NCBI GenBank assembly: GCA_044507735.1
Contig: JBIQJB010000009.1
Coordinates: forward strand, 1 to 64,000
DNA length: 64,000 bases
Reading direction: 5' to 3'
Origin: Nitrosopumilales archaeon
GTDB lineage: Archaea > Thermoproteota > Nitrososphaeria > Nitrososphaerales > Nitrososphaeraceae
Shown: positions 1 through 12,874 of the stretch, piece by piece
How positions within the stretch are numbered: position 1 is the stretch's first letter
How the letters are laid out: each line of letters begins with the position of its first letter
Program-made: the position numbers and the translations under genes
The notes under the pieces: generated by a model
Told to the model about the DNA's origin: nothing
Database searches by the model: none
The model's input: the letters and a program-made list of their open reading frames with translations, nothing else

Positions 1-161
1 GGATGCGGTTCACATTATTTCTGGCTAGGGATGGAGGCTAAGTTAACAGCGCCCAAGATACAATCAGATCGGATTTGTGGATAAAGGAGAATTAAATTCT
101 GGGCTTAGCGTTTGCAGGAGCAAGTGTAGGGGATCAAAACAAAAAGAGAGGGATAAGTCAC

Positions 162-722
162 TTATTCAGTGACAGTCAAGTTCAGCGGGAGTCCATGACC
201 CGTATAGACGTTCAGACCCCTGTTTGGGTCTTTTACACCCTCGATTGTGCCATCAAGCACATACGCGAAGACTTCGCCCTGTTGCGAGCCGAGATTCGCG
301 CCTGCTTCAGCCGCTATAGTCAGTGCGACAGTTGCCTTGCCGTTTGCTTCCAGTCTGACGGTCTGCGCGTCAAATGCATGCCTTATTCCTTCCAGCCGAG
401 CTGATTGCTGTCCTCCATCTTGGGCAGGCTTGCGGAACTCAAGGTTGACATCGAGCGGTCTGCCGTCTTGGGATTCAATCGTTACCTTGACGACGTGACC
501 CCTGCTGTCTCCCTTCGCTAGCGAAAGGTCGCTTTTGTCTAGCGATATGGAGAACTGTGACATTGCGGGCATGTTATAGTCCCTGACTACTACGTCTGCA
601 TCAGGGTTAGGATCCCTTGGCTTTTGGTTGGCACTAAATGCCTGCGTCGATAGGGTTGCTGTTACGAGTATTCCCATCACCGCTGCTGCGACGATTGGAA
701 TTACAAGATATTTGGTTTTCAT
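162..722 (-). CDS. Hypothetical secreted protein, probably Ig-like beta-sandwich
   Basis: 186 aa ORF. Basic N-terminus plus hydrophobic stretch and AFS cleavage-like site. Alternating beta-strand patterns (VKVTIES, ATVALTIAA, LNLTV). Confidence 0.7.
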   Translation of the reverse strand: MKTKYLVIPIVAAAVMGILVTATLSTQAFSANQKPRDPNPDADVVVRDYNMPAMSQFSISLDKSDLSLAKGDSRGHVVKVTIESQDGRPLDVNLEFRKPAQDGGQQSARLEGIRHAFDAQTVRLEANGKATVALTIAAEAGANLGSQQGEVFAYVLDGTIEGVKDPNRGLNVYTGHGLPLNLTVTE

Positions 723-747
723 TCTCTATTTTCCACTACTCCTTTTT

Positions 748-1440
748 CTATGAAGTGCAGGTCGTGCAGTAGATGCCGATAGACGTCTCTTTGGAGAAGT
801 ACGAGCTATCGTAGAAATTGACTACCGATTGTTTGTAGTTGCCTACTGCCGCGGCCTCAGCCATATGCTTCACAGTTGTAGTTATCGTACCCGTTGCAGG
901 ACCTTGTGTATTGCTTTGGACATTGCCAAAGTACGCATCTACGTTAGTTGTCCCTGTGGAGGATGGTTCGAAGAACCTATCCGTACTACTACCCCATGCG
1001 GATCCGTCTTTGTAGAGCTGGAATATCACGTGGTATTTTGCGCCGTGTAGATCAGACTGGTAATATTGTCCGTACTGGTCAATGCAGCCATAGCAGGCAT
1101 AGGCGTATGCGTAGCTATTCGTTATTGGGCGCGTTGGAGTATCTCCTGCTTGATTGATTGTTACCGATGCAGTGTAATATGCCTGTGGTGGGGTTACGTC
1201 TCGGAAATATGTCTGAGCGTGGGCTTTAACTTCAGTTGCTCCTGTCGTCCTGTCTGCTAACGCACATCTTTGAAGATACGTTAAGCCTGGCCAACCACCA
1301 GTTTCACAGGTTCCTGAAGCTGGAGTGCTCGTAATGTGGTCGTATGGTGGACTCTTGACAGTGGCCACGCCTGCAAATGCTTGGGGCATTGTCCAGACGG
1401 AAAAAGCGGCCAAGGTCGTTAAGACCACCATTGCATACAT
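748..1440 (-). CDS. Hypothetical secreted Thr/Tyr/Cys-rich protein
   Basis: 230 aa ORF with signal peptide (..PQAFA|G), six Cys and a C-terminal YCTTCTS. Ends 25 bp before the next gene, so probably an operon. Confidence 0.7.
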   Translation of the reverse strand: MYAMVVLTTLAAFSVWTMPQAFAGVATVKSPPYDHITSTPASGTCETGGWPGLTYLQRCALADRTTGATEVKAHAQTYFRDVTPPQAYYTASVTINQAGDTPTRPITNSYAYAYACYGCIDQYGQYYQSDLHGAKYHVIFQLYKDGSAWGSSTDRFFEPSSTGTTNVDAYFGNVQSNTQGPATGTITTTVKHMAEAAAVGNYKQSVVNFYDSSYFSKETSIGIYCTTCTS

Positions 1441-1609
1441 GACTTTCTTTCTATTCTTAAAAAACTTGTCTTATTCAGACTCTCAGTCACCAATTGCTAT
1501 TAATGATGATTGAACTATAAAAGTAAGCTGTTTTGGTAATGATATAATCATATTCGCGTGAAATTGGGAAATATAGTCTAAATACACTATATTTTTTAAT
1601 AACTTTCTT

Positions 1610-1912
1610 ATGATTACAAATGTGCGGAATAATGCTGAGCAACGTGAAGTAATGAGGACAGACTTGACTATGATAGTTGGGGTAGTGTTTTTTCTATTAG
1701 TACTGAATACCATATTCTTCTCCTCGATAACACAGATGCTATCTATCTCCAATCTAGCAAGGATTGGCGTGATAATGGGCAGTGTGGCTATATTTGGAGT
1801 GTCGTACTATTACGTACGCTCTGGAAAGAATTTTGAAAGAGGAAAAATGTTGATGAAGTGGACATTTCTGTATTTAGGATTCTCCTTTTTCATAGCTCTT
1901 GCTATACGATAA
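1610..1912 (+). CDS. Small hypothetical membrane protein (about 3 TM)
   Basis: Three hydrophobic segments. Lies in AT-rich DNA divergent from the secreted pair. Confidence 0.55.
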   Translation: MITNVRNNAEQREVMRTDLTMIVGVVFFLLVLNTIFFSSITQMLSISNLARIGVIMGSVAIFGVSYYYVRSGKNFERGKMLMKWTFLYLGFSFFIALAIR

Positions 1913-2172
1913 AAACATTGGACAAATTGATAGACAAGTTAATCTTAAACAGTCATAAACTGATGGGTACTCAATCGACAAGGCTACAGTACCAGCCTAT
2001 TTCAGTTATTAATTTGATAGACACTGTGGATTATTATACTTACCCTTCTTACACATTCCAAATCTGTATTCGCGGCATGTTTCATAAACTGTTATTGATG
2101 ATGGCTTCTCTTTATTCCTGCTAGATGCAGTCCTAGCTAGGCTTTGCATAAAGGGAGGGTAAAAGGAGCTTT

Positions 2173-3630
2173 TTATCCAAACCGCATAGGCCGGGTAATA
2201 ACTGAAGCTTGCGGGCATGATGCAATAATGTTTAGATCAAGTGTATCAAACTTGACATGAATTGATTTGGCTATCTGTGCCTTGATATGTTCTGGAACAC
2301 CACCATAGCATTTGTTCAACACTTCCGTATTCTCCCATCCACCCAAGCTGGCCACATAGGCAAGCGACCAGTTTGTTGCTGCCAGATAGTACTGAGCCAT
2401 CGTATGTCTGAACAGATGCAATGGATGTCCCGTAAAGTACAGTCCGTCACCTAACGCATAGATTCTGGTCTTTTCGTTGAGCCAGCTGCTTTTATCAAGC
2501 TCTGAAAATATTTTTTTGAATTTGACAGCCATTTTTGACATGACATAAGAAGCTTGTAGAGCGTTTGCCTTGTCACTCTTAGCGTCTTCAAAGAACAGAA
2601 ACTTTCTGTCTTTTGGGAGCCTATCATAAGCAGTCTCTACAACAGCTCTGCATTCTTCTGTTGGGTACTTGACCCACCACTTGCCTTCTCTGGTCAGATA
2701 CCAATCTCCTCTTTTCGTTTTGGATTCAAATTGCTCAACTCTAAATAATGGAGAAAAAGCTATCCTGTCCCGGCTCATAGATGCCATAGCAAACGCTCTA
2801 GCTCCTGTATGCAAGTCAATGTTCATAAATGACCATGATTCCCAATCACATTCATTCTCAAGTCTTTTGTTAATTCGATCTATTTGCTCCGATGTAATCA
2901 GTATGTCTTTGTATTCTCCAAGCCTGTCAGACGTGGTTGATAGACCATAGCGTTTGCCCTCGCCATGAGCAAAATTGATGTTGTGAGCTGCAAGAAAACT
3001 GCGGTATGCGTTGATCGTATTGGTCTTTTGCATTTGTGGGTACGCAGTATTGAACCATGCAAGGAAATTCTGCCAGTATTCGATCGCTATTTCTTTGCGC
3101 TTTGTAGCATCAATGGGTACGCCGTAGCTAATAATGGTGTCTGGCATCACCTTTAGCTGATTCGATATTCCATGTATGACATTTACAAGATGATTGATTC
3201 TGCTAGCAGGTATTGCGCCTGATTTCAAAAATGTTATCCATTTCTGAATTGATGGCAGCTGGTTGAACGGTTCCTTGTCTAATTTCTGATATTGCTGCGT
3301 TATCTGCTTTTGCAGAGATATGACAATGTTCCCATTAGCATCTCGCTTTATTCCCCACTTGTCATCTTTTTCCATCTCTGCTAGATAACGCGAAACAGTA
3401 CTGTGATCCTTGCCTACATCAGTACCAATTTCTCTGGTAGTGTAATTGCCATTTTGGATGCTGATTGTTATTGCTTCTTTGATCTTTTCCCTGTCCTTGA
3501 CTTTCAGACCCTTAACTCGTAAGCGGCTCTTACTTCGCACAAGTGCATGAGCCACTAGGCATCCATCTCCCTGATTGTAACACCGCCTAGAACTAACGCC
3601 AGTGACGTGGTAGAGGGATAGATATACCAA
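2173..3630 (-). mobile_element. Tyrosine recombinase/integrase with N-terminal HTH (true start probably near 3555)
   Basis: Catalytic motifs HTGAR (R), ESKTK (K), HLFRH (HxxR), LGGW and KCYG (Tyr nucleophile). HTH-like segment TTREIGTDVGKDHSTVSRYLAEME. Confidence 0.88.
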
Positions 3631-3843
3631 ATATCAAATAATAAAGTCGGAAAAATTATTAGTATTGCTTGATAAGCTCTGAAGTAAAAGTTAAGCAATT
3701 GTATATTTTCAGCGACCATTTTGAACGGTGCGACTATGCAACAAGTTATGCAACGCTTTTGGTGCATTAGACGCTTGGTAGAAGCGATATTCTCAAATAA
3801 TTATTCATCTTGCGATGATAGAATTGACGGTGAGAAGAGAGGT

Positions 3844-4086
3844 ATGAAATTTGTTCTGTCACAGGGATATCCTATTCCGGGATGCGCCAGGCTCTTGTAC
3901 AAAGATGTGAGAACTGGTGACAACAAGAAAATAGGGGTGGTCTATTCGGAAGACGAACATTTCATTATAGTGCATTCACCACGCGCAAGACAATACAGAA
4001 TACCAAGATCAGCCATCAAGCGCACTGACGGGTCCCAGGTACTACTGGGGATATCTTCTCCGGAATTGAGGAGGTATGGTTTGTGA
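3844..4086 (+). CDS. Small PRC-barrel-like hypothetical protein
   Basis: YKDVRTGDNKKIGVV...YRIPRSAI pattern typical of PRC-barrel-like domains. GTGA overlap with the next ORF. Confidence 0.55.
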   Translation: MKFVLSQGYPIPGCARLLYKDVRTGDNKKIGVVYSEDEHFIIVHSPRARQYRIPRSAIKRTDGSQVLLGISSPELRRYGL

Positions 4087-4688
4087 GGCGAACCGATCGA
4101 CTGCCTGTATATACTGCGTTTAAAGGCTCGAAGATGGGGCTTGCTATCAGAGGATATGAATTGGTTCCAAACAAGGCGCTCTTAACCAAAATTTCTCTTT
4201 ACGCTCCGGAAGTTGTCGAGTCGGTACTATCAGAGCATCCAGAAATAGTTGACGCATGGCTGAAACAGTTGCACTACAAGTATGTCGCGTCTAAAAGGTC
4301 GTGCGAACTTGAAAACGATCCTATAGCCTGCTTCAACTTGTTACCGCTGAAGCAATTCGAAGAGCACTTCCAGTCATGGAAGGACGATGGGATCATTAGA
4401 TTATCCTTGCCAGGGGGCAAGGCCATCCGAATAAAAAACACGAGAAATGAGCAGGAAGTGGAGGTTACCGATGAAATCGCTCTCGCGAATGAAGCAGCTC
4501 CGCATCCGCACTTTGTATGCAGCGCATGTTCGGCAACTTTTGCAGATAGTGAGCAATACAGCAGGCATCGCATGCATGAAGCCGAGATGAAGAAAAGGAA
4601 AAAGTTGTTTCTGGAACGTGCGGCAGAAAAGAGAAGAACCGCTGCCAAACAAGACATTCCGCCAAACCCTATATGGTGGCTATACTAG
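4083..4688 (+). CDS. Hypothetical protein with C-terminal C2H2 zinc finger
   Basis: FVCSACSATFADSEQYSRHRMHE motif followed by a basic tail. Confidence 0.7.
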   Translation: MRRTDRLPVYTAFKGSKMGLAIRGYELVPNKALLTKISLYAPEVVESVLSEHPEIVDAWLKQLHYKYVASKRSCELENDPIACFNLLPLKQFEEHFQSWKDDGIIRLSLPGGKAIRIKNTRNEQEVEVTDEIALANEAAPHPHFVCSACSATFADSEQYSRHRMHEAEMKKRKKLFLERAAEKRRTAAKQDIPPNPIWWLY

Positions 4689-5156
4689 TATCAGGCTCTG
4701 CACTTCTCCCACTCCAGAACATCAAAAGTCCTATCCTAGTCTGTCAAGACAAAATCGAGCTGATGGCCGTTGAACTATTTTCCTCCTGGCAAAACATGAA
4801 ACAAGCTCAACAGCATGCCGATAGCATGCAAAACGATGGTCCAGCTGATTGGTGAGAATTGCTATTGAATTTGTTTGGAAGAGATCTTGGCATCCTTAAC
4901 ATTGTTACGGGAGCCTAAATAGATCGAATGCGCAAATTGTACTCATGGAAAAAGAGAAGGAAGAAGGCGCAAAACTCCTTGAATGCAAGACCTGTCACTT
5001 GAAATTTGCAAATGAAGCCTATTTTGAAAGCCATATGGTGATGGAGCATCAGAAGAAAATACTGCCAAGCGGCGTGCAATAGTTAGTTGACATTCATGCT
5101 TCTTGGCCAGACATGACCTGCCAAGAGGCAATCCCTAATAATGTTGCAAGACTTGG

Positions 5157-5483
5157 CTAGCCCGCCCTTACGGCTTTGCTGCCGCACTTTGGACATTCTC
5201 TCAGTTTGTGACTCGTGCCGCAAGTAGTGCAGCGGAACTCAAGCTTTCTTTCCAGAGGATCAGATCGTAACATGTTGCTTGAAAAAGACGCTGCAGATGA
5301 GTATGCGCGCTTGATCCTTCTAATAGCCCAGAATCTAACTGCGTATGAAATTGCCAAGAAAACGACCATCATGGCTCCAAGAGCATATGGAAATGGCAAG
5401 ATGGAGGAAATTGCAAGGCCGATTGCAAATCCGCCGGCTATCCAGCCTATCTGCTGGATTAGAAATTTTTTCTGTTGGTTCAT
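5157..5483 (-). CDS. 2-TM membrane protein with C-terminal zinc ribbon
   Basis: Two TM helices followed by CTTCG...CPKCGS. Confidence 0.75.
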   Translation of the reverse strand: MNQQKKFLIQQIGWIAGGFAIGLAISSILPFPYALGAMMVVFLAISYAVRFWAIRRIKRAYSSAASFSSNMLRSDPLERKLEFRCTTCGTSHKLRECPKCGSKAVRAG

Positions 5484-5994
5484 CTGGTAAGTTCAATGTA
5501 TATCAGCACACAAGTCTTTGAAATGAATAACTTAACCTTGTTAATTGAAGGGAACGTTCCAAGCATGTTTTTCTCCTTCAGGCCAAGGATTGTTTTCTTC
5601 CACAAAGTTGCTCAAGCTAGCTAGACGATGAATGGTGAAATTGACAAACATCGACAAATTGATTCGCATATCTGAAAACTGGGAATACGCGCAGCATTTG
5701 TAGCTGTTGATCTGGGTGGCTTCGCGCCTTAGGGCATGCGGACCCATTCGTCGAGTCTCTGCCTTTCTCCCCCCTGCAGGCAAGACGCTAGCGGCAACGA
5801 TAAAAGACCGAGGTCGCTACGGGGCGGCCAAGAACGTGCGCCATGAATTAAGCCTGTAGGTAATATCTATAGAGTCCTGCTCTACCTTGCCCATCTATGA
5901 AATATCCGAAGCTGGTGCTTCTAAATCTGTATGATGCGAATAGTACATCTCGAAGTGGCGAATTTGATAAAAGCTAATCGGGCAAAGGTCGTAC

Positions 5995-6998
5995 ATGCAC
6001 CGTCATTTTCATGTGCACCGCGCGTCAGCCATAATTGCAATTCCTGCTTTGTTACTATTATTGTCTCAGCCGACACTAATCGCTGCCTTTGCGACAACAT
6101 CTACTTCGACCTCTCCGGCCCCTGACGGAACCACTGAAATTGGCAGGATAAGCAGCTTTTCCGAGGGCTGGAAGAATTCTTGGCTCCGTCGGGCTATCAG
6201 CAGGCGAGAGAAGACCCGTCATACGCAATTACCATACCATTTGATGATTCTGGCAATTCCCAATTCGAGCCGCAAACAATATCCATTCCGGCCAACATGA
6301 CAGTGATCTGGTTTAACGAAGATGATTCGCCCCACTCGGTTACAATCAATTCCAGCAGCTCGGTGCCAGACTCGGAGAAATTCGATTCAGACGCAATAAG
6401 TCCCAAGGATGGATCGTTCTTTCACCAATTTACGGTGCCTGGTGTGTACGATTATTACGACAGTCTGCACCCTTCTCTGAAAGGGAGGATTAATGTGGGC
6501 GGAGAGTCTGAACCTGGAAAGAACATGGACATGCAGGTAGGCGGAGATGCCTTGCCTTTTGATGCAGCCAAGGTTGGAAGGATTACATTTTCATTTGTAC
6601 CAAAGGACAATGTAACCGCGATCCCGCCAACCTTGAGCATAACTTACAATGTGACCATTGCCAATTCCACAGGTGTTCTATACAGCAACCAGTTTGAGGA
6701 CTCTGATGGCATACTTGACTTGGAGCTGATCCCTACAAACAGATCGTTGTCGAACCAAACTGCCCCGTCGCATTTTCTAACTTGGGGCCCTGACCTCACT
6801 GATCAGGAAGGGGTGGCAAGTGATGGAACGTATCACGTCCAGGGTCCGGTTCTAGTGAAGAATGAAGATTATTCCATCGGTGTATCTATCGTGGCAATTG
6901 ACAATGCAATACAATCGCCTCCGCCAAGTGACACCTTTCTCCTCCCATCCGCAAACTCAACCGCCGACTCTGTGTTGGCTTTTGCCGGCGGCCAATGA
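5995..6998 (+). pseudogene. Cupredoxin/plastocyanin-like secreted protein split by an apparent 1-bp frameshift near 6136-6140
   Basis: The signal peptide is in the 5995 frame. The cupredoxin domain (FEPQTISI..VIWFNED..HSVT..F...G.YDYYD..HP) is in the 6180 frame, which is open only from 6138 after a TGA at 6135. Confidence 0.7.
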
Positions 6999-7047
6999 TG
7001 CCGCCCACAATTAGCAGTTTTCTTTTTTTAATGATATCATGTGGTGA

Positions 7048-7920
7048 CTACCCGCGGGCGCTCCTGGCGGTGGTGTGAGCAGAGTAATACTGCTCGGCAT
7101 GCTGCAGTGCCTGCCTCTTTTCTTCGGAGAGTGCATTGCCAAGCATCTCTTCAAATTGCAAGGCATTGATTACTGCCGCACCCGCATAATGGTTGTTAAA
7201 GTAAATGCGCATCCGCTTCACACCGCTGCTTATCGCATTTACCTTTGCAACCCATGGCCCAAGCTCTTCTTTGCTGTAAAGGTAGTTGTACCAATAGCCC
7301 TTGTTGCGACCGTGCAGTCGTATGAAGGCATGATCTGCGGTCACGACAGGGTTGGAAAGGTACTCCAGCTTGGGATCTGGCGAATCCGTCAGAACGGAGG
7401 CAATATTATGCTGCTTCAACAGTTCCAGCGCACCCTCGGTTTCCCAGGACTCGTGTCTGAATTCCACTGCATAGTCATATTCTCGCGGCAGTAGCCGCAG
7501 AAAGTCCTCAATCTTTCTAAAGTCGTCGACCGTAAACCAGGGCGGCATCTGGAACAAAATCGCGCCCAGCTTGTTGTATTTCTTGAGCGGAGAGATCTTG
7601 TCCAAATACGCTTGAAAATCAGAAAAGGCCCCCTCGCTAGCCGACAGCTTTTTCTTGTGGGTTATTGTCTCAGGAACCTTGAGTGAAAACTGGAACCCTT
7701 CGGGCGTGGCCCTGCTCAAACCGTAAAATAAGCCAGGTTTCATATCATTGTAGAACCGCTCATAAAATATTGCGTCAAACTCTGCTGTGTTAAAGTAATG
7801 GCTGTAATAGCGGAGGAGCCTTGTCTCATTTTCCGGGTAGAATACTCCCTTCCAACCGCCTTTCATTGGCGAATCTGGGTAGTTCCAGCCAGAACAGCCG
7901 ATCTGAATTTGTACGCTCAA
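7048..7920 (-). CDS. DUF72 (YecE-like) TIM-barrel protein
   Basis: IGCSGWNY, FSLKVP..ITH, LFQMPP, AVEFRHESW, IRLHGR and YFNNH motifs. Confidence 0.92.
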   Translation of the reverse strand: MSVQIQIGCSGWNYPDSPMKGGWKGVFYPENETRLLRYYSHYFNTAEFDAIFYERFYNDMKPGLFYGLSRATPEGFQFSLKVPETITHKKKLSASEGAFSDFQAYLDKISPLKKYNKLGAILFQMPPWFTVDDFRKIEDFLRLLPREYDYAVEFRHESWETEGALELLKQHNIASVLTDSPDPKLEYLSNPVVTADHAFIRLHGRNKGYWYNYLYSKEELGPWVAKVNAISSGVKRMRIYFNNHYAGAAVINALQFEEMLGNALSEEKRQALQHAEQYYSAHTTARSARG

Positions 7921-8083
7921 CTCTGCTTCTCAATGGATGCGAATAATAAATAAAGCGAGCGAAAATGCCATCAGCTTACCTCTCCGAATTGCAACTTCCT
8001 TTCATTGGTTAAGATTTTTGCCATAGCAATGCTATTTGAAACAATGGCCTTTGCAGCAAGTCCTGAATAGAGTTCCAAAGCTC

Positions 8084-8818
8084 CTAACGTCCGTCGGCAG
8101 CATGAGAAAGATACCTTGCGTGCAATAGGGAAGTGATGTGCTTGCGCGTCACAACCAATCCAAACGCAAGCAAGAACGCGACGCCGTGAACAAAGACGTT
8201 GCTGCCCGGTGTCCTGGAAAGAAAGATGTCCGGCGCTGCCAGGAGCATCGATAGAAAGAATCCAACGACAATTGCATTTACCAGAATCACGCCTCTTATT
8301 TTCCTACGCGGCATTTCTGGGACAGTTCTTGCTCTCAAAGCTGCATCTTGGATATTTTCCACAGCAAGCCCTAATGCCGCCCCTCCAACAGCAAATACGA
8401 GCCCGGACGCGCCGACCGAAGCGAATTGAATGTTGGGATTAACAATTTGGAAAGCGAGGGCCCACAAGACATCGGCAGTCACCGCCGAGCCAATAACCAC
8501 TGGAACAAAAGATACAGCTCTTCCTTTTCGTTCGCTGTCAGGCACTAGCGAGATCGATAGTAAGATATACGAAGTAAAACCCCATAAGGCGCCAATGTTT
8601 GCAAGGAGATGGTCCCAGCTGCGGTGCAAGAGCATCGAGGTAAAGACGCCCCAGGGTGTTGACGGCGACATCTGGAGCGTTATTGTTACGTCATTGTTGA
8701 TAAGCTGAAAAATATACATGACAAGAGTGGCAGCCGTTACGACTGCCGCCAGCACGATGACTGGCCGGTTCAATCGAAGTGATTTCAAGAACTCTTCTTT
8801 TGCGCTGTATGTTCTCAT
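8084..8818 (-). CDS. Rhomboid-family intramembrane serine protease
   Basis: LLH.SWDHLLAN, GASG (catalytic Ser) and VHGVAF (catalytic His), with about 6 TM helices. Confidence 0.88.
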   Translation of the reverse strand: MRTYSAKEEFLKSLRLNRPVIVLAAVVTAATLVMYIFQLINNDVTITLQMSPSTPWGVFTSMLLHRSWDHLLANIGALWGFTSYILLSISLVPDSERKGRAVSFVPVVIGSAVTADVLWALAFQIVNPNIQFASVGASGLVFAVGGAALGLAVENIQDAALRARTVPEMPRRKIRGVILVNAIVVGFFLSMLLAAPDIFLSRTPGSNVFVHGVAFLLAFGLVVTRKHITSLLHARYLSHAADGR

Positions 8819-8820
8819 CC

Positions 8821-9036
8821 CTACTCACTTTCGTCGTCCCAAGATATTGCGTTCGTGCCCTGGACGAGCATGTTACAGTTGTCACAAAAATACCTGCAAT
8901 TATCAAAGTAGTCGTAGGACTGCTCCAGTGGCGAATCGCAATCGGGACACGACATTCCATGATGGCCATGATCTTCCATCTCTGCTGACAATTCTGGGGC
9001 AACAAGCTGTTGCCTTGATTCTCTTGTCATGCCCAA
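8821..9036 (-). CDS. Small zinc-ribbon protein
   Basis: CPDC...FCDNC motif with a His-rich leader (DHGHHG). Sits 2-8 bp from both neighbours. Confidence 0.65.
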   Translation of the reverse strand: MGMTRESRQQLVAPELSAEMEDHGHHGMSCPDCDSPLEQSYDYFDNCRYFCDNCNMLVQGTNAISWDDESE

Positions 9037-9044
9037 TTTCTCCC

Positions 9045-9521
9045 CTACTGATACACCCTAAAGTTGCCCGGAGTGCATGTCATGATTCCTTCCATCCTTG
9101 CAACCATTCGCAAATCGCTATCGTATGTCACGAGTACCGCGCCGAGATTCTTGCAATAAACAAGGTAGATATTGTCTGGAGAATGACAAAGGTTCAGATA
9201 CTTGGCCTTTAGCTCGTCAGCTTCCGACATTATCCTGCCAACATCTTCGCCGCTGCATTGGCCGACATAGTCTATCTGTCCCATCATTGAGAATGATTCT
9301 ATTAGTTCCAAAGCCCGTTCGGTGTCAATCTTGGCAACCCTGGACACTTCTTTAATCAGGATGCTGGGGACTACTATTCTGATGTCCTTGCGATGAGCAA
9401 TCTTTTTCCTCAGCTCCAGAGCTTCCGGCTTGTTCTCGTATGCACTAACTATCGTGCAGGTATCGAGCAGTATCAGTGTCTGTTGCTGTGATGACAGGAG
9501 CTTTGCGAACTGGTTCATCAT
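9045..9521 (-). CDS. PIN-domain (VapC-like) ribonuclease
   Basis: LLDTC, ILIKEV, SPDNIYL and LVTYDSDL: all acidic PIN catalytic positions are present. Confidence 0.88.
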   Translation of the reverse strand: MMNQFAKLLSSQQQTLILLDTCTIVSAYENKPEALELRKKIAHRKDIRIVVPSILIKEVSRVAKIDTERALELIESFSMMGQIDYVGQCSGEDVGRIMSEADELKAKYLNLCHSPDNIYLVYCKNLGAVLVTYDSDLRMVARMEGIMTCTPGNFRVYQ

Positions 9522-9540
9522 GACGACAGTTATGGTGGAA

Positions 9541-9600
9541 ATTTATTTATTGATGTTGACGTCAATAACGTTAACAACGTTTAAATCATTAACAATGTAA
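9541..9600. promoter_or_regulatory. Divergent promoters with a palindromic candidate operator
   Basis: TATA-like ATAAATAAAT on the minus strand (9541-9550) and TTTAAAT on the plus strand (9580-9586). Between them lies the imperfect 23-bp palindrome TGTTGACGTCAATAACGTTAACA (9554-9576), which contains the perfect TTGACGTCAA. Confidence 0.6.
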
Positions 9601-9611
9601 GCATTAGTTGC

Positions 9612-10373
9612 ATGCCTACAAACCTTCGAGTCCACGTCTCACCGGTTGGATTTGATCCTCAGGAGCGCGTAACGGCCCCACTGATTGAATACCGCGCCGA
9701 CAAGGTTTATCTTGTATCAAAAAGCAAGGACGATTCTGCCGCTCACCGGCTGAAACAAGTCCGCAAGGCCCTTGAAAAGCATCCACACATTGAAGTCCAA
9801 GATGTCTATGTGAATATCTGGGATCTTTTTAGCTGTCTAGAAAAATTCCGGACAATCTTTGACTCGGAGAAAGGTAACCACATTCACGTCAATGTCTCCA
9901 CCGGGAGCAAGATTGTATCTATAGCAGGTATGCTAGCGTGCATGCTCTGGCGCGGCACTCCTTACTACGCCAAACTGGATTATAATGGTAGTGGACCTTC
10001 TTCCAGTCCAGAACAGCGCAGGGTAATCGCTACTGAATTCCTGCCTGTTTATCAGATAAACATGCCCCAGCCAGAATTGCTGCAAGTACTGTCGATTGTT
10101 CATGGTAACGGCGACAGAATTAGTAAGAAGGAATTGATTGAAGAATTGCAAGGTCTGAGGATGATTCCGGTGTACGGTCCATCCCAAACAAAGAGTGCTC
10201 CACACAGCAGATTGCGAGCGATACTCGAGCCGCTTGAGAATCACTGGCAATTTGTCCAGGTCGATGCCAGGGGGAGAAGAAGCCAAGTTTCGCTTACTGA
10301 GCAGGGAAAAAGGGCTTTGAGAATATTTGGCAGTGGGGAAATGCTGGCGCAGCAACAATATCGCACGCCATGA
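9612..10373 (+). CDS. DUF6293/HFX_2341-type CARF-like Rossmann plus wHTH transcriptional regulator (Csa3-like architecture)
   Basis: RVHVSPVGFDP.RV, ADKVYLV, VNVSTGSKI and YY motifs. C-terminal wHTH (ISKKELI...LEPLEN...VSLTEQG). Confidence 0.82.
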   Translation: MPTNLRVHVSPVGFDPQERVTAPLIEYRADKVYLVSKSKDDSAAHRLKQVRKALEKHPHIEVQDVYVNIWDLFSCLEKFRTIFDSEKGNHIHVNVSTGSKIVSIAGMLACMLWRGTPYYAKLDYNGSGPSSSPEQRRVIATEFLPVYQINMPQPELLQVLSIVHGNGDRISKKELIEELQGLRMIPVYGPSQTKSAPHSRLRAILEPLENHWQFVQVDARGRRSQVSLTEQGKRALRIFGSGEMLAQQQYRTP

Positions 10374-10539: not shown

Positions 10540-11097
10540 CTATGCTCGTTTCTTATAGATCAGGACGGCCGCTCTTTCCAGATTCTTGACTGCGTTTGAG
10601 ACTGATACCAGCGCTATGCCGGTCAGTATTCCTCCCACTCCAAGGGCCAGAACTGTCACGGAACCAAAATACAATCCATCCTTCAGAGCGAGGGCACCGT
10701 ACCCTACAGAGTGGATCAAGTTTGCTGTATGCCTGAAATCATCTCCGATATTTTGCATGTTGTCCGCCAAGGCCTCTAGGTTCGAGCCCATGTCATTCAG
10801 CTGGTTCCTCTGTGATGACAGATCGAAAAGTCCCACGCAGCCTCCGTCCTCAGAACAGGGGAGGGAATTGCCAAAATTCTGCAGTCTGATGCCAACGTCC
10901 CTCAGGCTGCTTGAACCGCTATAGAACTCACCCTCTGTTCCGGGATTGTAGTTTATCAAATCCCATCCAACCTTATTCAGGCTGTCCAAGGCAGGAGGCA
11001 ACACTATGATGAATGTGTATGCGGCAAGACCCGTCGTTCCGATGCCCAAGATTAGGACCACTACCGCCAGCGCGGCTATTACGCTATTGGGTCGCAT
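10540..11097 (-). CDS. Hypothetical membrane protein, two TM helices flanking a helical extracellular domain
   Basis: N- and C-terminal hydrophobic helices, heptad-like middle region and one Cys pair. Confidence 0.65.
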   Translation of the reverse strand: MRPNSVIAALAVVVLILGIGTTGLAAYTFIIVLPPALDSLNKVGWDLINYNPGTEGEFYSGSSSLRDVGIRLQNFGNSLPCSEDGGCVGLFDLSSQRNQLNDMGSNLEALADNMQNIGDDFRHTANLIHSVGYGALALKDGLYFGSVTVLALGVGGILTGIALVSVSNAVKNLERAAVLIYKKRA

Positions 11098-11385: not shown

Positions 11386-11986
11386 CTTTAAGATGCCAAA
11401 GTTACTCTGGGCTACAGCGTCCTCTGGGTATTTGCATGAAGTAGGTCCTGTTCTAGAAGAGCAAATATGGTTCAAGGGGTGCGAGCAAAAGGCAAACAGC
11501 CTTCCATCTAATGCACTGGAACGCGCCCCTCTGCGATCTTCTCAATATGGGCTAACACATCTCTACTGATCTCACACGCGCGAGTTTACACTGTGGGGAT
11601 GCTCTTGCAGCAACCCTGATAGGTGTCTTTTAGATGATGACATGGAAAGCTCGCAGGCAGCGCCAGAAGCAAAAATCGGTCTGCCTCTCTTTGCACAGAG
11701 ATAAAGAGGATCTAATCTGGTCATTCAATAATACCAACGAGATAAATCCTGGGCAGCAGTAATGGAATTCCGCAATGAAAAAAATTGAGATGGGTTACCA
11801 GATGGTCTCTTTGGCAATGCATGCTTATATGGAACAGCTTGACCCACTGGTGGCTACAAGGTCTGCAATTTCCTGAGCATTTTAGGTCGAGCTGGAATGA
11901 TAAGTTCAGAACCAGCCTGCTAACTGAATCCTAGTCCAATATCCCGGTTCTGTTATATGCAATATTGCGCATGTGAACGTGTCCTG

Positions 11987-12874
11987 ATGATAAAGCGGGC
12001 TAGGCCGGTATGTGGGAATTGCGGCGACGGCCAAAAGGTAACTGACACTGAAACGGGCGAGCTCATTTGTATCAACTGTGGCTTTGTCATACGAGAGCGC
12101 CTGGGCAACGAAGATGAAGGCTGGAGTCTACCTGATAGGGAGCCAGAAAGCAGATTGAGGACAAGCCCGACGTCACTTGCTCGCTCTGGCATGGGTCTCT
12201 CTACAATCATGGGGCGGCCAGATAGGAGCGGCGGCAGGGGGATCAATGCAGCCATGCGGTCCACGTTCGACCGGCTCAGGGCGTGGGATTTTCGGATAAA
12301 GGGTCAGGACGAGCGGACTCTCCGGCGCGCATTTGTAGAGCTTGACAGGCTTCGAAGCTCACTCGGACTGTCAGATGCTATGGTGGAAAAGGCAGCGTAC
12401 ATCTACAGACGGGCTCAGGAGCAAGGGCTTGTCAGGGGCAGAACAATGCGGGCCGTCATGGGAGCAGCCATCTACATCGCGCAGAGAGAGATGGGCATCT
12501 CCGGCACGCTCGATGATGTGATTGCTGCAACCAACACGAAGGAGAAAGACCTCGCAAGATCTTACCGGATGCTCTTGCGGGAACTCGATCTGAAGGTGCC
12601 GATGCTAGATCCTTTAAAGTGCGTCTCCCGTGTGGCTGGCAGGGCCAACATCAGCGAGCGCACAAAGCGAAAAGCCATGGCTATCGTTTCCAACGTCATG
12701 AAGAAGGGACTTGCCGTTGGCAGGAATCCGATGGGTCTTGCAGCGTCTGTCTTGTACATCGCCTGCGTCAGTAGCGGCGAACCGAAGAGCCAGGCTTCGA
12801 TTGCAAACGCTGCGGGAGTGTCGGAGGTAACGTTGAGAAAGAACCAGCAGATGATAATGCGGAAAGTGACCTAG
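11987..12874 (+). CDS. tfb: Transcription initiation factor IIB (TFB) paralog
   Basis: Zn ribbon CGNC..D.ETGELICINCG, GLSTIMG, two cyclin repeats and C-terminal GVSEVTLR. TATA-like TTATAT at 11953. Confidence 0.93.
   Translation: MIKRARPVCGNCGDGQKVTDTETGELICINCGFVIRERLGNEDEGWSLPDREPESRLRTSPTSLARSGMGLSTIMGRPDRSGGRGINAAMRSTFDRLRAWDFRIKGQDERTLRRAFVELDRLRSSLGLSDAMVEKAAYIYRRAQEQGLVRGRTMRAVMGAAIYIAQREMGISGTLDDVIAATNTKEKDLARSYRMLLRELDLKVPMLDPLKCVSRVAGRANISERTKRKAMAIVSNVMKKGLAVGRNPMGLAASVLYIACVSSGEPKSQASIANAAGVSEVTLRKNQQMIMRKVT

Follow-up and report, generated by a model that had tools for sequence, protein, structure and literature searches.

Locus and question

What does a regulator with a CARF-like domain control outside a recognisable CRISPR context? 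The question is raised by a locus on contig JBIQJB010000009.1 of a Nitrosopumilales archaeon (GenBank assembly GCA_044507735.1; Nitrososphaeraceae in GTDB), of which we analysed positions 1 to 64,000, referred to here as the window. A gene of the DUF6293 family stands there back to back with genes for a PIN nuclease, a small zinc (Zn) ribbon protein and a rhomboid protease. A preliminary description, made from the letters of the window, had proposed a CRISPR-independent, second-messenger-controlled stress or defence module that links RNA cleavage to intramembrane proteolysis. We found that the regulator is a CARF protein with a winged helix-turn-helix (wHTH) domain and that its pairing with the PIN gene recurs in relatives, whereas the rhomboid belongs to a single lineage. 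On balance we regard it as probable, with some reserve, that we are dealing with an accessory module of ammonia-oxidising archaea, made up of two parts, in which a portable CARF-wHTH switch controls a divergent PIN cassette via a repeat operator. The genes and the spacer between them, with lengths in amino acids (aa) or base pairs (bp), are as follows.

8084-8818, minus strand: rhomboid intramembrane serine protease, 244 aa (open reading frame (ORF) list, Pfam PF01694)
8821-9036, minus strand: acidic Zn-ribbon microprotein, 71 aa from TTG or 69 aa from ATG (ORF list)
9045-9521, minus strand: predicted VapC-like PIN nuclease of a lineage-specific family, 158 aa (ORF list, Pfam PF01850)
9522-9611, no strand: putative divergent promoter region, 90 bp (spacer between the PIN and regulator genes)
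9612-10373, plus strand: DUF6293/CARF3-type regulator with an N-terminal CARF (Rossmann-like) domain and a C-terminal winged helix, 253 aa (Pfam, PADLOC, AlphaFold2)

The genes are separated by 8 bp, 2 bp and 90 bp, so the ORF list agrees exactly with the four genes, the tight packing and the divergent spacer described before, and the rhomboid, PIN and DUF6293 identities were all borne out by Pfam matches above curated cut-offs. The genome that holds the window (G000) is 97% complete at 2.33 Mb. The organism, an ammonia oxidiser of soil, belongs to Nitrososphaera, which is the genus in our comparisons; close homologues carry the label Nitrososphaera sp. The loci compared came from a search of 60 relatives, from 19 GTDB loci and from 3 metagenome loci found via PIN, and they contain 10 distinct Nitrososphaera-type PIN loci (the window, L018/L038, L034/L017, L042, L043, L013, L021/L014, L020, L019 and L044). 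Defence models were taken from PADLOC-DB 2.0 at E ≤ 0.001.

The regulator is a CARF-wHTH protein

The regulator matched HFX_2341_N (PF19810; 9.1e-28, 97.6 bits, cut-off 30) and the winged helix DUF6293_C (PF22665; 3.3e-17, 63.2 bits, cut-off 27), and it also matched Csa3_N above the curated cut-off (6.4e-8). The PADLOC model PDLC01847 'CARF3--CARF' spans the protein end to end (3.8e-54), and all of its PADLOC matches were CARF models. An AlphaFold2 (AF2) model built with 24 homologues had a predicted local distance difference test score (pLDDT) of 90.8. When this model was compared with the PDB using Foldseek, each of the first ten entries listed was a CARF protein (E 1e-8 to 4e-7), with SSO1393, Can2, Csa3 with and without cyclic tetra-adenylate (cA4), the ring nuclease Sis0811 and Cdn1 among the CARF matches and Csm6 and Card1 further down the list. 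The predicted structure agrees with the CARF-like N-terminal domain that had been proposed from the letters. Considering that Pfam, PADLOC and the AF2 model are concordant, the regulator belongs to a catalogued class, the DUF6293/CARF3 CARF-wHTH proteins; the label CARF3 follows the name of the PADLOC model and presumably applies.

CARF pockets carry the motif [DN]x[ST]xxx[RK] after strand 4. In the regulator, the stretch N94-V-S96-T97-G98-S-K100 comes directly after strand 4, whose last residue in the model is 94, and we take this stretch to fit the motif. N94, S96 and G98 do not vary among the 24 homologues, and conservation at T97 and K100 is 90% or more. The DUF6293 family occurs once in the genome of the window. 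Across the 60 relatives searched, the regulator turned up in 5 of the 36 that belong to the genus and in 0 of the 24 from other families of the order, and its distribution is patchy within the genus.

The regulator is paired with PIN across relatives

A divergent regulator adjoins the PIN gene in 10/10 Nitrososphaera-type loci. Elsewhere in the order, among the best 30 loci found for the related PIN family, a DUF6293 gene adjoins PIN in 14 and is missing from 16, and to this extent the conserved linkage on which the preliminary description depends holds for the regulator and PIN. Ten of the 16 regulator-less PINs form a separate clade whose conserved neighbours are a 280-aa membrane protein, a receiver-like protein and an ABC permease. 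The 280-aa protein, which is divergent from these PINs, was considered as a hidden DUF6293 protein and rejected (hhalign probability 0.15%). Downstream of PIN in Nitrosopumilaceae the genes are variable, with DUF7220, RNase_H_2, VRR-NUC and PD-(D/E)XK among them.

The Nitrososphaera PINs formed one clade (support 99/97) in a midpoint-rooted tree of 35 rows, from which L034, L042, L044, L060 and L073 were omitted. The regulator tree, also midpoint-rooted, was made by a quick short search with 31 rows (omitting L034, L035, L042-44, L065 and L073). There the PIN-linked regulators of Nitrosopumilaceae formed one clade (support 99), and the PIN-Zn-linked regulators of Nitrososphaera formed another (support 89), which grouped with regulators of other cargo. 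As the PIN-linked regulators lie in two separate clades, homologous PINs seem to have been paired with two regulator lineages, which argues for a functional tie and not for one inherited accident. We found no published description of this pairing in the literature covered, which was literature other than the CARF classification work and its supplements.

Two decayed copies were also observed. In G031 (L034/L017), frameshifts or stop codons run across the whole DUF72-rhomboid-Zn-PIN-regulator block, and in G026 (L015) a C-terminal regulator fragment alone remains and PIN is gone.

Operator-like repeats lie between the putative divergent promoters

The 90-bp spacer contains the following features.

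9541-9551, minus strand: TATA-like ATTTATTTATT for the PIN gene
about 9556-9565: palindrome TTGACGTCAA, between the TATA-like boxes
9559-9594: three to four units with 9-bp periodicity, between the TATA-like boxes
9581-9587: TTTAAAT, 25-31 nucleotides (nt) upstream of the regulator ATG

Since the TATA-like boxes lie 20-30 nt ahead of both start codons, both mRNAs are probably leaderless. The repeat block is the best-conserved DNA in 8/8 aligned PIN-Zn loci, at which the proteins are 45-87% identical. Related GTTAAYA-type tandems precede related regulators irrespective of whether the cargo is a ubiquitin-like (Ubl)-E2-E1-TIR operon, DdmD or PbeA. The tandem-unit pattern was present in 13 of 19 regulator-upstream regions of 110 nt, against 1 match in 335,606 nt of flanking background, a contrast that is indicative only, since the pattern was written after those sequences had been seen. 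The PIN-linked regulators of Nitrosopumilaceae have a different, ATAsTAT-type repeat, which is also 9-bp periodic, in 10 of the 12 spacers read; the remaining two could not be assessed owing to their ORF-start calls. From its boxes and repeats, the spacer would serve as promoter and operator.

Related regulators stand beside varied cargo

Among the 19 GTDB regulator loci, five carry PIN-Zn. In six, the regulator is divergent to a Multi_ubiq and Prok-E2_E operon, with a ThiF E1 confirmed in five and TIR in three. One locus each carries a DdmD-like helicase-nuclease (PADLOC 1e-48; L023, Methanoperedens), a full-length PbeA homologue (4.8e-207; L032, Nitrososphaerales), NurA, a VWA protein and a type I restriction-modification specificity subunit. 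In one more locus a transposase lies beside a truncated regulator copy, and two have nothing obvious.

The loci with this cassette for ubiquitin-like conjugation (L024, L026, L027, L029, L030 and L033) have the order Multi_ubiq, Prok-E2_E, (JAB)-ThiF E1, TIR, and their hosts are Nitrosopumilus, Nitrosotenuis and other Nitrososphaerota; the TIR gene there is found under a CARF-type regulator. In L021 (= G016), an 846-aa HerA/DUF87-type ATPase with a mad8-like PADLOC match lies at 5787-8327, convergent to the regulator, and on the other side of the regulator come PIN-Zn and then a GajB-like UvrD/PD-(D/E)XK helicase-nuclease.

PIN and its Zn-ribbon partner

The PIN protein matched PF01850 at 9.9e-11 (42.7 bits). 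Its acidic residues are intact as described before, with D20, E58 and D116 invariant in 15 homologues and D134 present in the window, though not invariant in the family, and the protein would be expected to act as an RNase. The AF2 model had a pLDDT of 82.5 and matched HARP, the protein-only RNase P, best (2.3e-5), along with Nmd4 and VapC (1.1e-4), so that the fold is predicted to be VapC/HARP-like. A word search gave 15 clusters, and a profile run against 1.84 billion representatives gave 63 proteins at E ≤ 1e-3 and 6 at E ≤ 1e-30; judged from these searches, the family is tiny and lineage-specific. A profile of its distant members matched 64 of the 401 order genomes searched, the majority of them from a single family (44/112), and the wider PIN family is present in 10 of 11 genomes of one genus. 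No VapB-type ORF lies upstream of PIN in the 90-bp spacer, where there is no room for one, as the preliminary description had stated. A split Nob1, composed of PIN and Zn ribbon, was also considered and rejected: there was no Nob1 in the Pfam matches of the PIN or Zn protein and none among the listed Foldseek matches, and no PIN-Zn fusion occurred in the 63 representatives.

The Zn protein follows PIN in 9/9 evaluable Nitrososphaera loci (L044 ends at PIN), and its linkage to PIN is in this sense conserved within the genus. The CxxC/CxxC pattern noticed in the window proved invariant, with C30-x2-C33 and C51-x2-C54 (CPxC...CxNC) kept in 7/7 sequences. The ATG at 9030 aligns with the starts of the orthologues and is the probable start. 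The protein is strongly acidic, with an isoelectric point of 4.05-4.15 in 5/5 sequences (4.15 in the window). It had sub-threshold Zn-ribbon matches only in Pfam, with no DNA-binding family match, and only generic small Zn-ribbon clusters in ESM Atlas. A prediction of the PIN-Zn complex scored 0.00, which gives no answer and speaks neither for nor against binding. At the PIN loci of Nitrosopumilaceae, a Zn ribbon is not a regular feature, and CxxC ORFs were found in L056 only. As far as gene order can tell, the Zn protein is a genus-level partner of PIN.

The rhomboid occupies a variable third position

The rhomboid matched PF01694 at 1.4e-7 (32.2 bits, cut-off 22.6). H65, H70, N74 and G136-A-S138-G139 are invariant in 6/6 sequences, H219 is kept in 5/5 full-length homologues, and a hydropathy scan gave six hydrophobic segments. 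The protein therefore has the features of a rhomboid of peptidase family S54 as far as these can be read from sequence, namely the domain, the GxSG serine, the histidine of the sixth transmembrane (TM) segment, HxxxxHxxxN and a six-TM core, and the Ser-His dyad, described before as intact, is conserved as S138/H219.

In the loci compared, the linkage of the rhomboid to PIN-Zn does not extend beyond one lineage. Of 8 evaluable loci, 4 have the rhomboid behind PIN-Zn, namely the window, L018/L038, L034, where it is frameshifted, and L043. All four share a flanking DUF72 gene and the intact rhomboids are at least 76% identical, which points to one lineage and one evolutionary event. Directly after the Zn gene, L020 and L021 have a UvrD + PD-(D/E)XK helicase-nuclease of 933-1120 aa, and L013 and L019 have nothing comparable; in L013 the Zn gene is followed by a 109-aa ORF that was considered as NurA-like, an idea dropped when no family was found for it. 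The rhomboid was found in 2/60 other genus genomes, its subfamily comprises 6 clusters in 5.8 billion proteins, and an order-wide search of 400 genomes returned only 3 distant matches, beside which there was no PIN, Zn protein or DUF6293. As the rhomboid gene starts 2 bp past the stop codon of the Zn-ribbon gene, the two are probably co-transcribed. From these comparisons, the rhomboid is a lineage-specific and probably co-transcribed addition, and the link is not general. The coupling of RNA cleavage to intramembrane proteolysis is not supported as a general system; the CARF assignment by predicted structure, the independence from CRISPR as far as the 97%-complete genome shows, the regulator-PIN linkage and, within the genus, the PIN-Zn linkage are supported.

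CRISPR context and possible signal sources

The window contains no CRISPR-like tandem array and no Rfam RNA. Profiles of Cas1 and Cas10 had no match on the contig of the window, although not every ORF of the window was scanned against cas profiles, and the absence of CRISPR and cas genes reported before agrees with these results within that scope. Cas10 (Cmr2 and Csm1 models) was not found in the 97%-complete genome, and as far as this genome shows, the independence from CRISPR holds. A cyclic oligoadenylate made by Cas10 is unlikely to be the putative ligand of the regulator in this genome.

Two further matches were observed in the genome. The only Cas1-like match is a short one on contig C17 (243557-243859; 26.9 bits), which is broken by TGA and may be a casposon or cas remnant. 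On contig C43 (47660-48016), a sub-threshold SMODS (CD-NTase-like) match lies within a 535-aa open frame, which, from this similarity, could encode a nucleotide-signal synthase.

Comparison with known systems

HFX_2341 of Haloferax mediterranei is by experiment a Csa3a-like transcriptional repressor whose action is global and extends to cas genes (Turgeman-Grott et al. 2024, PMC11434293), and this was the only paper on DUF6293/HFX_2341 that we found. HFX_2341 has the PF19810 domain, the DUF6293-type wHTH and the Csa3-like fold in common with the regulator studied here and needs no CRISPR context, but it is a global regulator of 308 aa that is vertically inherited in haloarchaea. The window regulator scored 12.3 bits against the NCBIfam equivalog cut-off of 500, is patchy in its genus, and is tied to one divergent operon, with one perfect copy of its putative operator pattern in the genome. 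With Csa3a of Saccharolobus solfataricus (PDB 2WTE, 6WXQ and 6W11), the regulator is predicted to share the CARF + wHTH fold (E about 7e-8), while the sequence identity is about 14% and the TIGR01884 score of 30.9 is below the cut-off of 60.2. Csa3a holds cA4 in its CARF pocket and binds promoter DNA beside the B recognition element (BRE) and TATA box (PMC8699464). Its recognition site is an 18-bp palindrome, and what it regulates are cas genes and CRISPR leaders, in a genome that has type III systems. The window regulator has instead a candidate 9-bp-periodic operator, a PIN operon as cargo and a genome in which Cas10 was not found.

Compared with the VapC toxins of VapBC pairs, the nuclease has the same PIN fold, conserved acidic residues and similar size. 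However, the locus has no upstream DNA-binding antitoxin of the AbrB, ribbon-helix-helix (RHH), PhD or helix-turn-helix (HTH) type; its small partner is a downstream Zn ribbon, and its DNA-binding partner is the divergent CARF-wHTH protein. CARF-PIN effectors (the CARF_m1/Crf6 class) likewise link a CARF sensor with a PIN nuclease outside CRISPR loci, but there CARF gates PIN allosterically, in one protein or a co-transcribed pair. Considering that the CARF protein of the window has a wHTH and is divergently transcribed, the coupling here is presumably transcriptional, unlike in that class, and the window PIN matched no CARF-associated model of PADLOC. In bacteria, the WYL regulators BrxR and CapW combine a ligand-binding domain with a wHTH and stand beside many defence cassettes as a portable switch. 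The likeness is one of function only, since the sensor fold is WYL and not CARF and the hosts are bacterial and not archaeal.

Surroundings of the locus

A gene for the archaeal marker TFB lies at 11957-12874, as seen in a Pfam scan of the window. To the left of the locus, eight consecutive ORFs of 80-485 aa at 1-6000 are without a Pfam family, which fits a variable genomic region. A 185-aa membrane protein without a family match is encoded at 10540-11097 on the minus strand; its synteny with the module extends to L018, L042 and L043 (84-86% identity), and in other genomes of the genus the protein is absent or only 32% identical. Insertion boundaries sought through orthologues of the flanking DUF72 and TM185 genes were not found, the flanks being non-syntenic in 5 complete or near-complete genomes of the genus.

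A two-part module and its rivals

In the reading that we prefer, the regulator, probably a dimer as in Csa3, would bind the 9-bp-periodic repeats between the back-to-back promoters and thereby regulate both its own expression and that of the divergent operon. As the CARF pocket keeps the signature residues of the family, a small and probably nucleotide-derived ligand in it may switch DNA binding. The constant cargo would be PIN, with the acidic Zn protein as a possible inhibitor or adaptor of PIN, and the third gene would be swappable, being the rhomboid here, UvrD/PD-(D/E)XK in two loci and none in two. Most likely, the whole would act as an inducible nuclease cassette against viruses or mobile elements, or for stress; a role in conflict or defence is plausible from the distribution of the module and the company it keeps. 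Several observations weigh against this reading. PIN, Zn protein and rhomboid matched no PADLOC family, and up to 26 kb away the window shows no further gene recognisable as belonging to defence or to a mobile element. The L018 PIN has Y at the D134 position and the L019 PIN is degenerate. Ten of the 35 rows of the PIN tree belong to the regulator-less clade, whose conserved neighbourhood looks like housekeeping. The operator pattern was counted on the same sequences from which it had been derived, and its relaxed matches across the genome, 72 against 116 in the control, show no enrichment. On the other hand, the 20-nt tandem pattern occurs without mismatch at this locus alone in the 2.33-Mb genome, and one perfect copy with relaxed matches below the control suggests a local and not a global regulator.

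The tight spacing of the operon would also suit a reading in which PIN, Zn ribbon and rhomboid are one integrated system, with RNA cleavage coupled to intramembrane proteolysis under CARF control: the 8- and 2-bp gaps, together with 4-nt overlaps in L018 and L043, imply that the genes are co-transcribed and perhaps also coupled in translation, the rhomboid has kept its catalytic dyad, and close members of the rare rhomboid subfamily (at least 76% identity) were seen only behind PIN-Zn. Yet the four rhomboid loci amount to a single event by their DUF72 synteny and high identity, half of the eight evaluable PIN-Zn loci do without the rhomboid and two of these have the helicase-nuclease instead, the 14 regulator-PIN loci of Nitrosopumilaceae include none with a rhomboid among the downstream genes scanned, and the distant rhomboid relatives lack PIN, Zn and DUF6293 nearby. 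We hold this reading to be distinctly improbable. If instead PIN and Zn were a type II-like toxin-antitoxin pair that stabilises a variable region, the regulator would set transcription only or be an unrelated neighbour. MqsRA, a toxin-first pair with a Zn-binding antitoxin, may offer an analogy, and the proximity of the PIN fold to VapC, HARP and Nmd4, the small acidic partner tightly coupled downstream at every evaluable locus and the patchy distribution would all fit. The Zn protein, however, has no DNA-binding domain, unlike VapB, and the Nitrosopumilaceae PINs retain the regulator and not, outside L056, a Zn partner, so that the constant partner of PIN is the regulator; such a pair seems unlikely.

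A housekeeping or metabolic PIN for RNA processing, tuned by a metabolite-sensing regulator with no role in conflict, would account for the regulator-less clade, whose conserved synteny with transport genes indicates that the PIN family is not always a regulated accessory gene. It would also be in line with the frequent occurrence of the wider PIN family in a single family of the order and in one genus, with protein-only RNase P as the best structural match of PIN, and with HFX_2341, which represses chiefly nutrient-transport genes (PMC11434293). On the other side, the Nitrososphaera module is present in a minority of genomes and in non-syntenic contexts with nucleases and helicases, and the closest relatives of its regulator flank recognised defence genes; we consider a housekeeping role distinctly improbable. 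A bolder form of the two-part module would make the DUF6293 CARF-wHTH proteins the archaeal counterpart of BrxR/CapW, namely portable switches that are gated by a ligand, have co-evolving 9-bp-repeat operators and license a wide range of defence cassettes. PIN-Zn would then form the core of a defence system not yet described, to which exchangeable third effectors are added, the rhomboid in this case. This we regard as rather improbable; if it is true, the rhomboid would be the first intramembrane protease to serve as a defence effector. The eye-catching rhomboid link, as noted above, belongs to a single lineage.

Significance

What is known of CARF domains mostly concerns the reception of signals from type III CRISPR systems. 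In the case described here, members of a CARF regulator family go together with a nuclease gene in two families of ammonia oxidisers, archaea that are mostly without type III systems. The locus offers a defined putative promoter and operator and a route to the ligand of CRISPR-independent CARF sensors, and it provides a candidate inducible nuclease module in archaea that are ecologically important and genetically hard to study.

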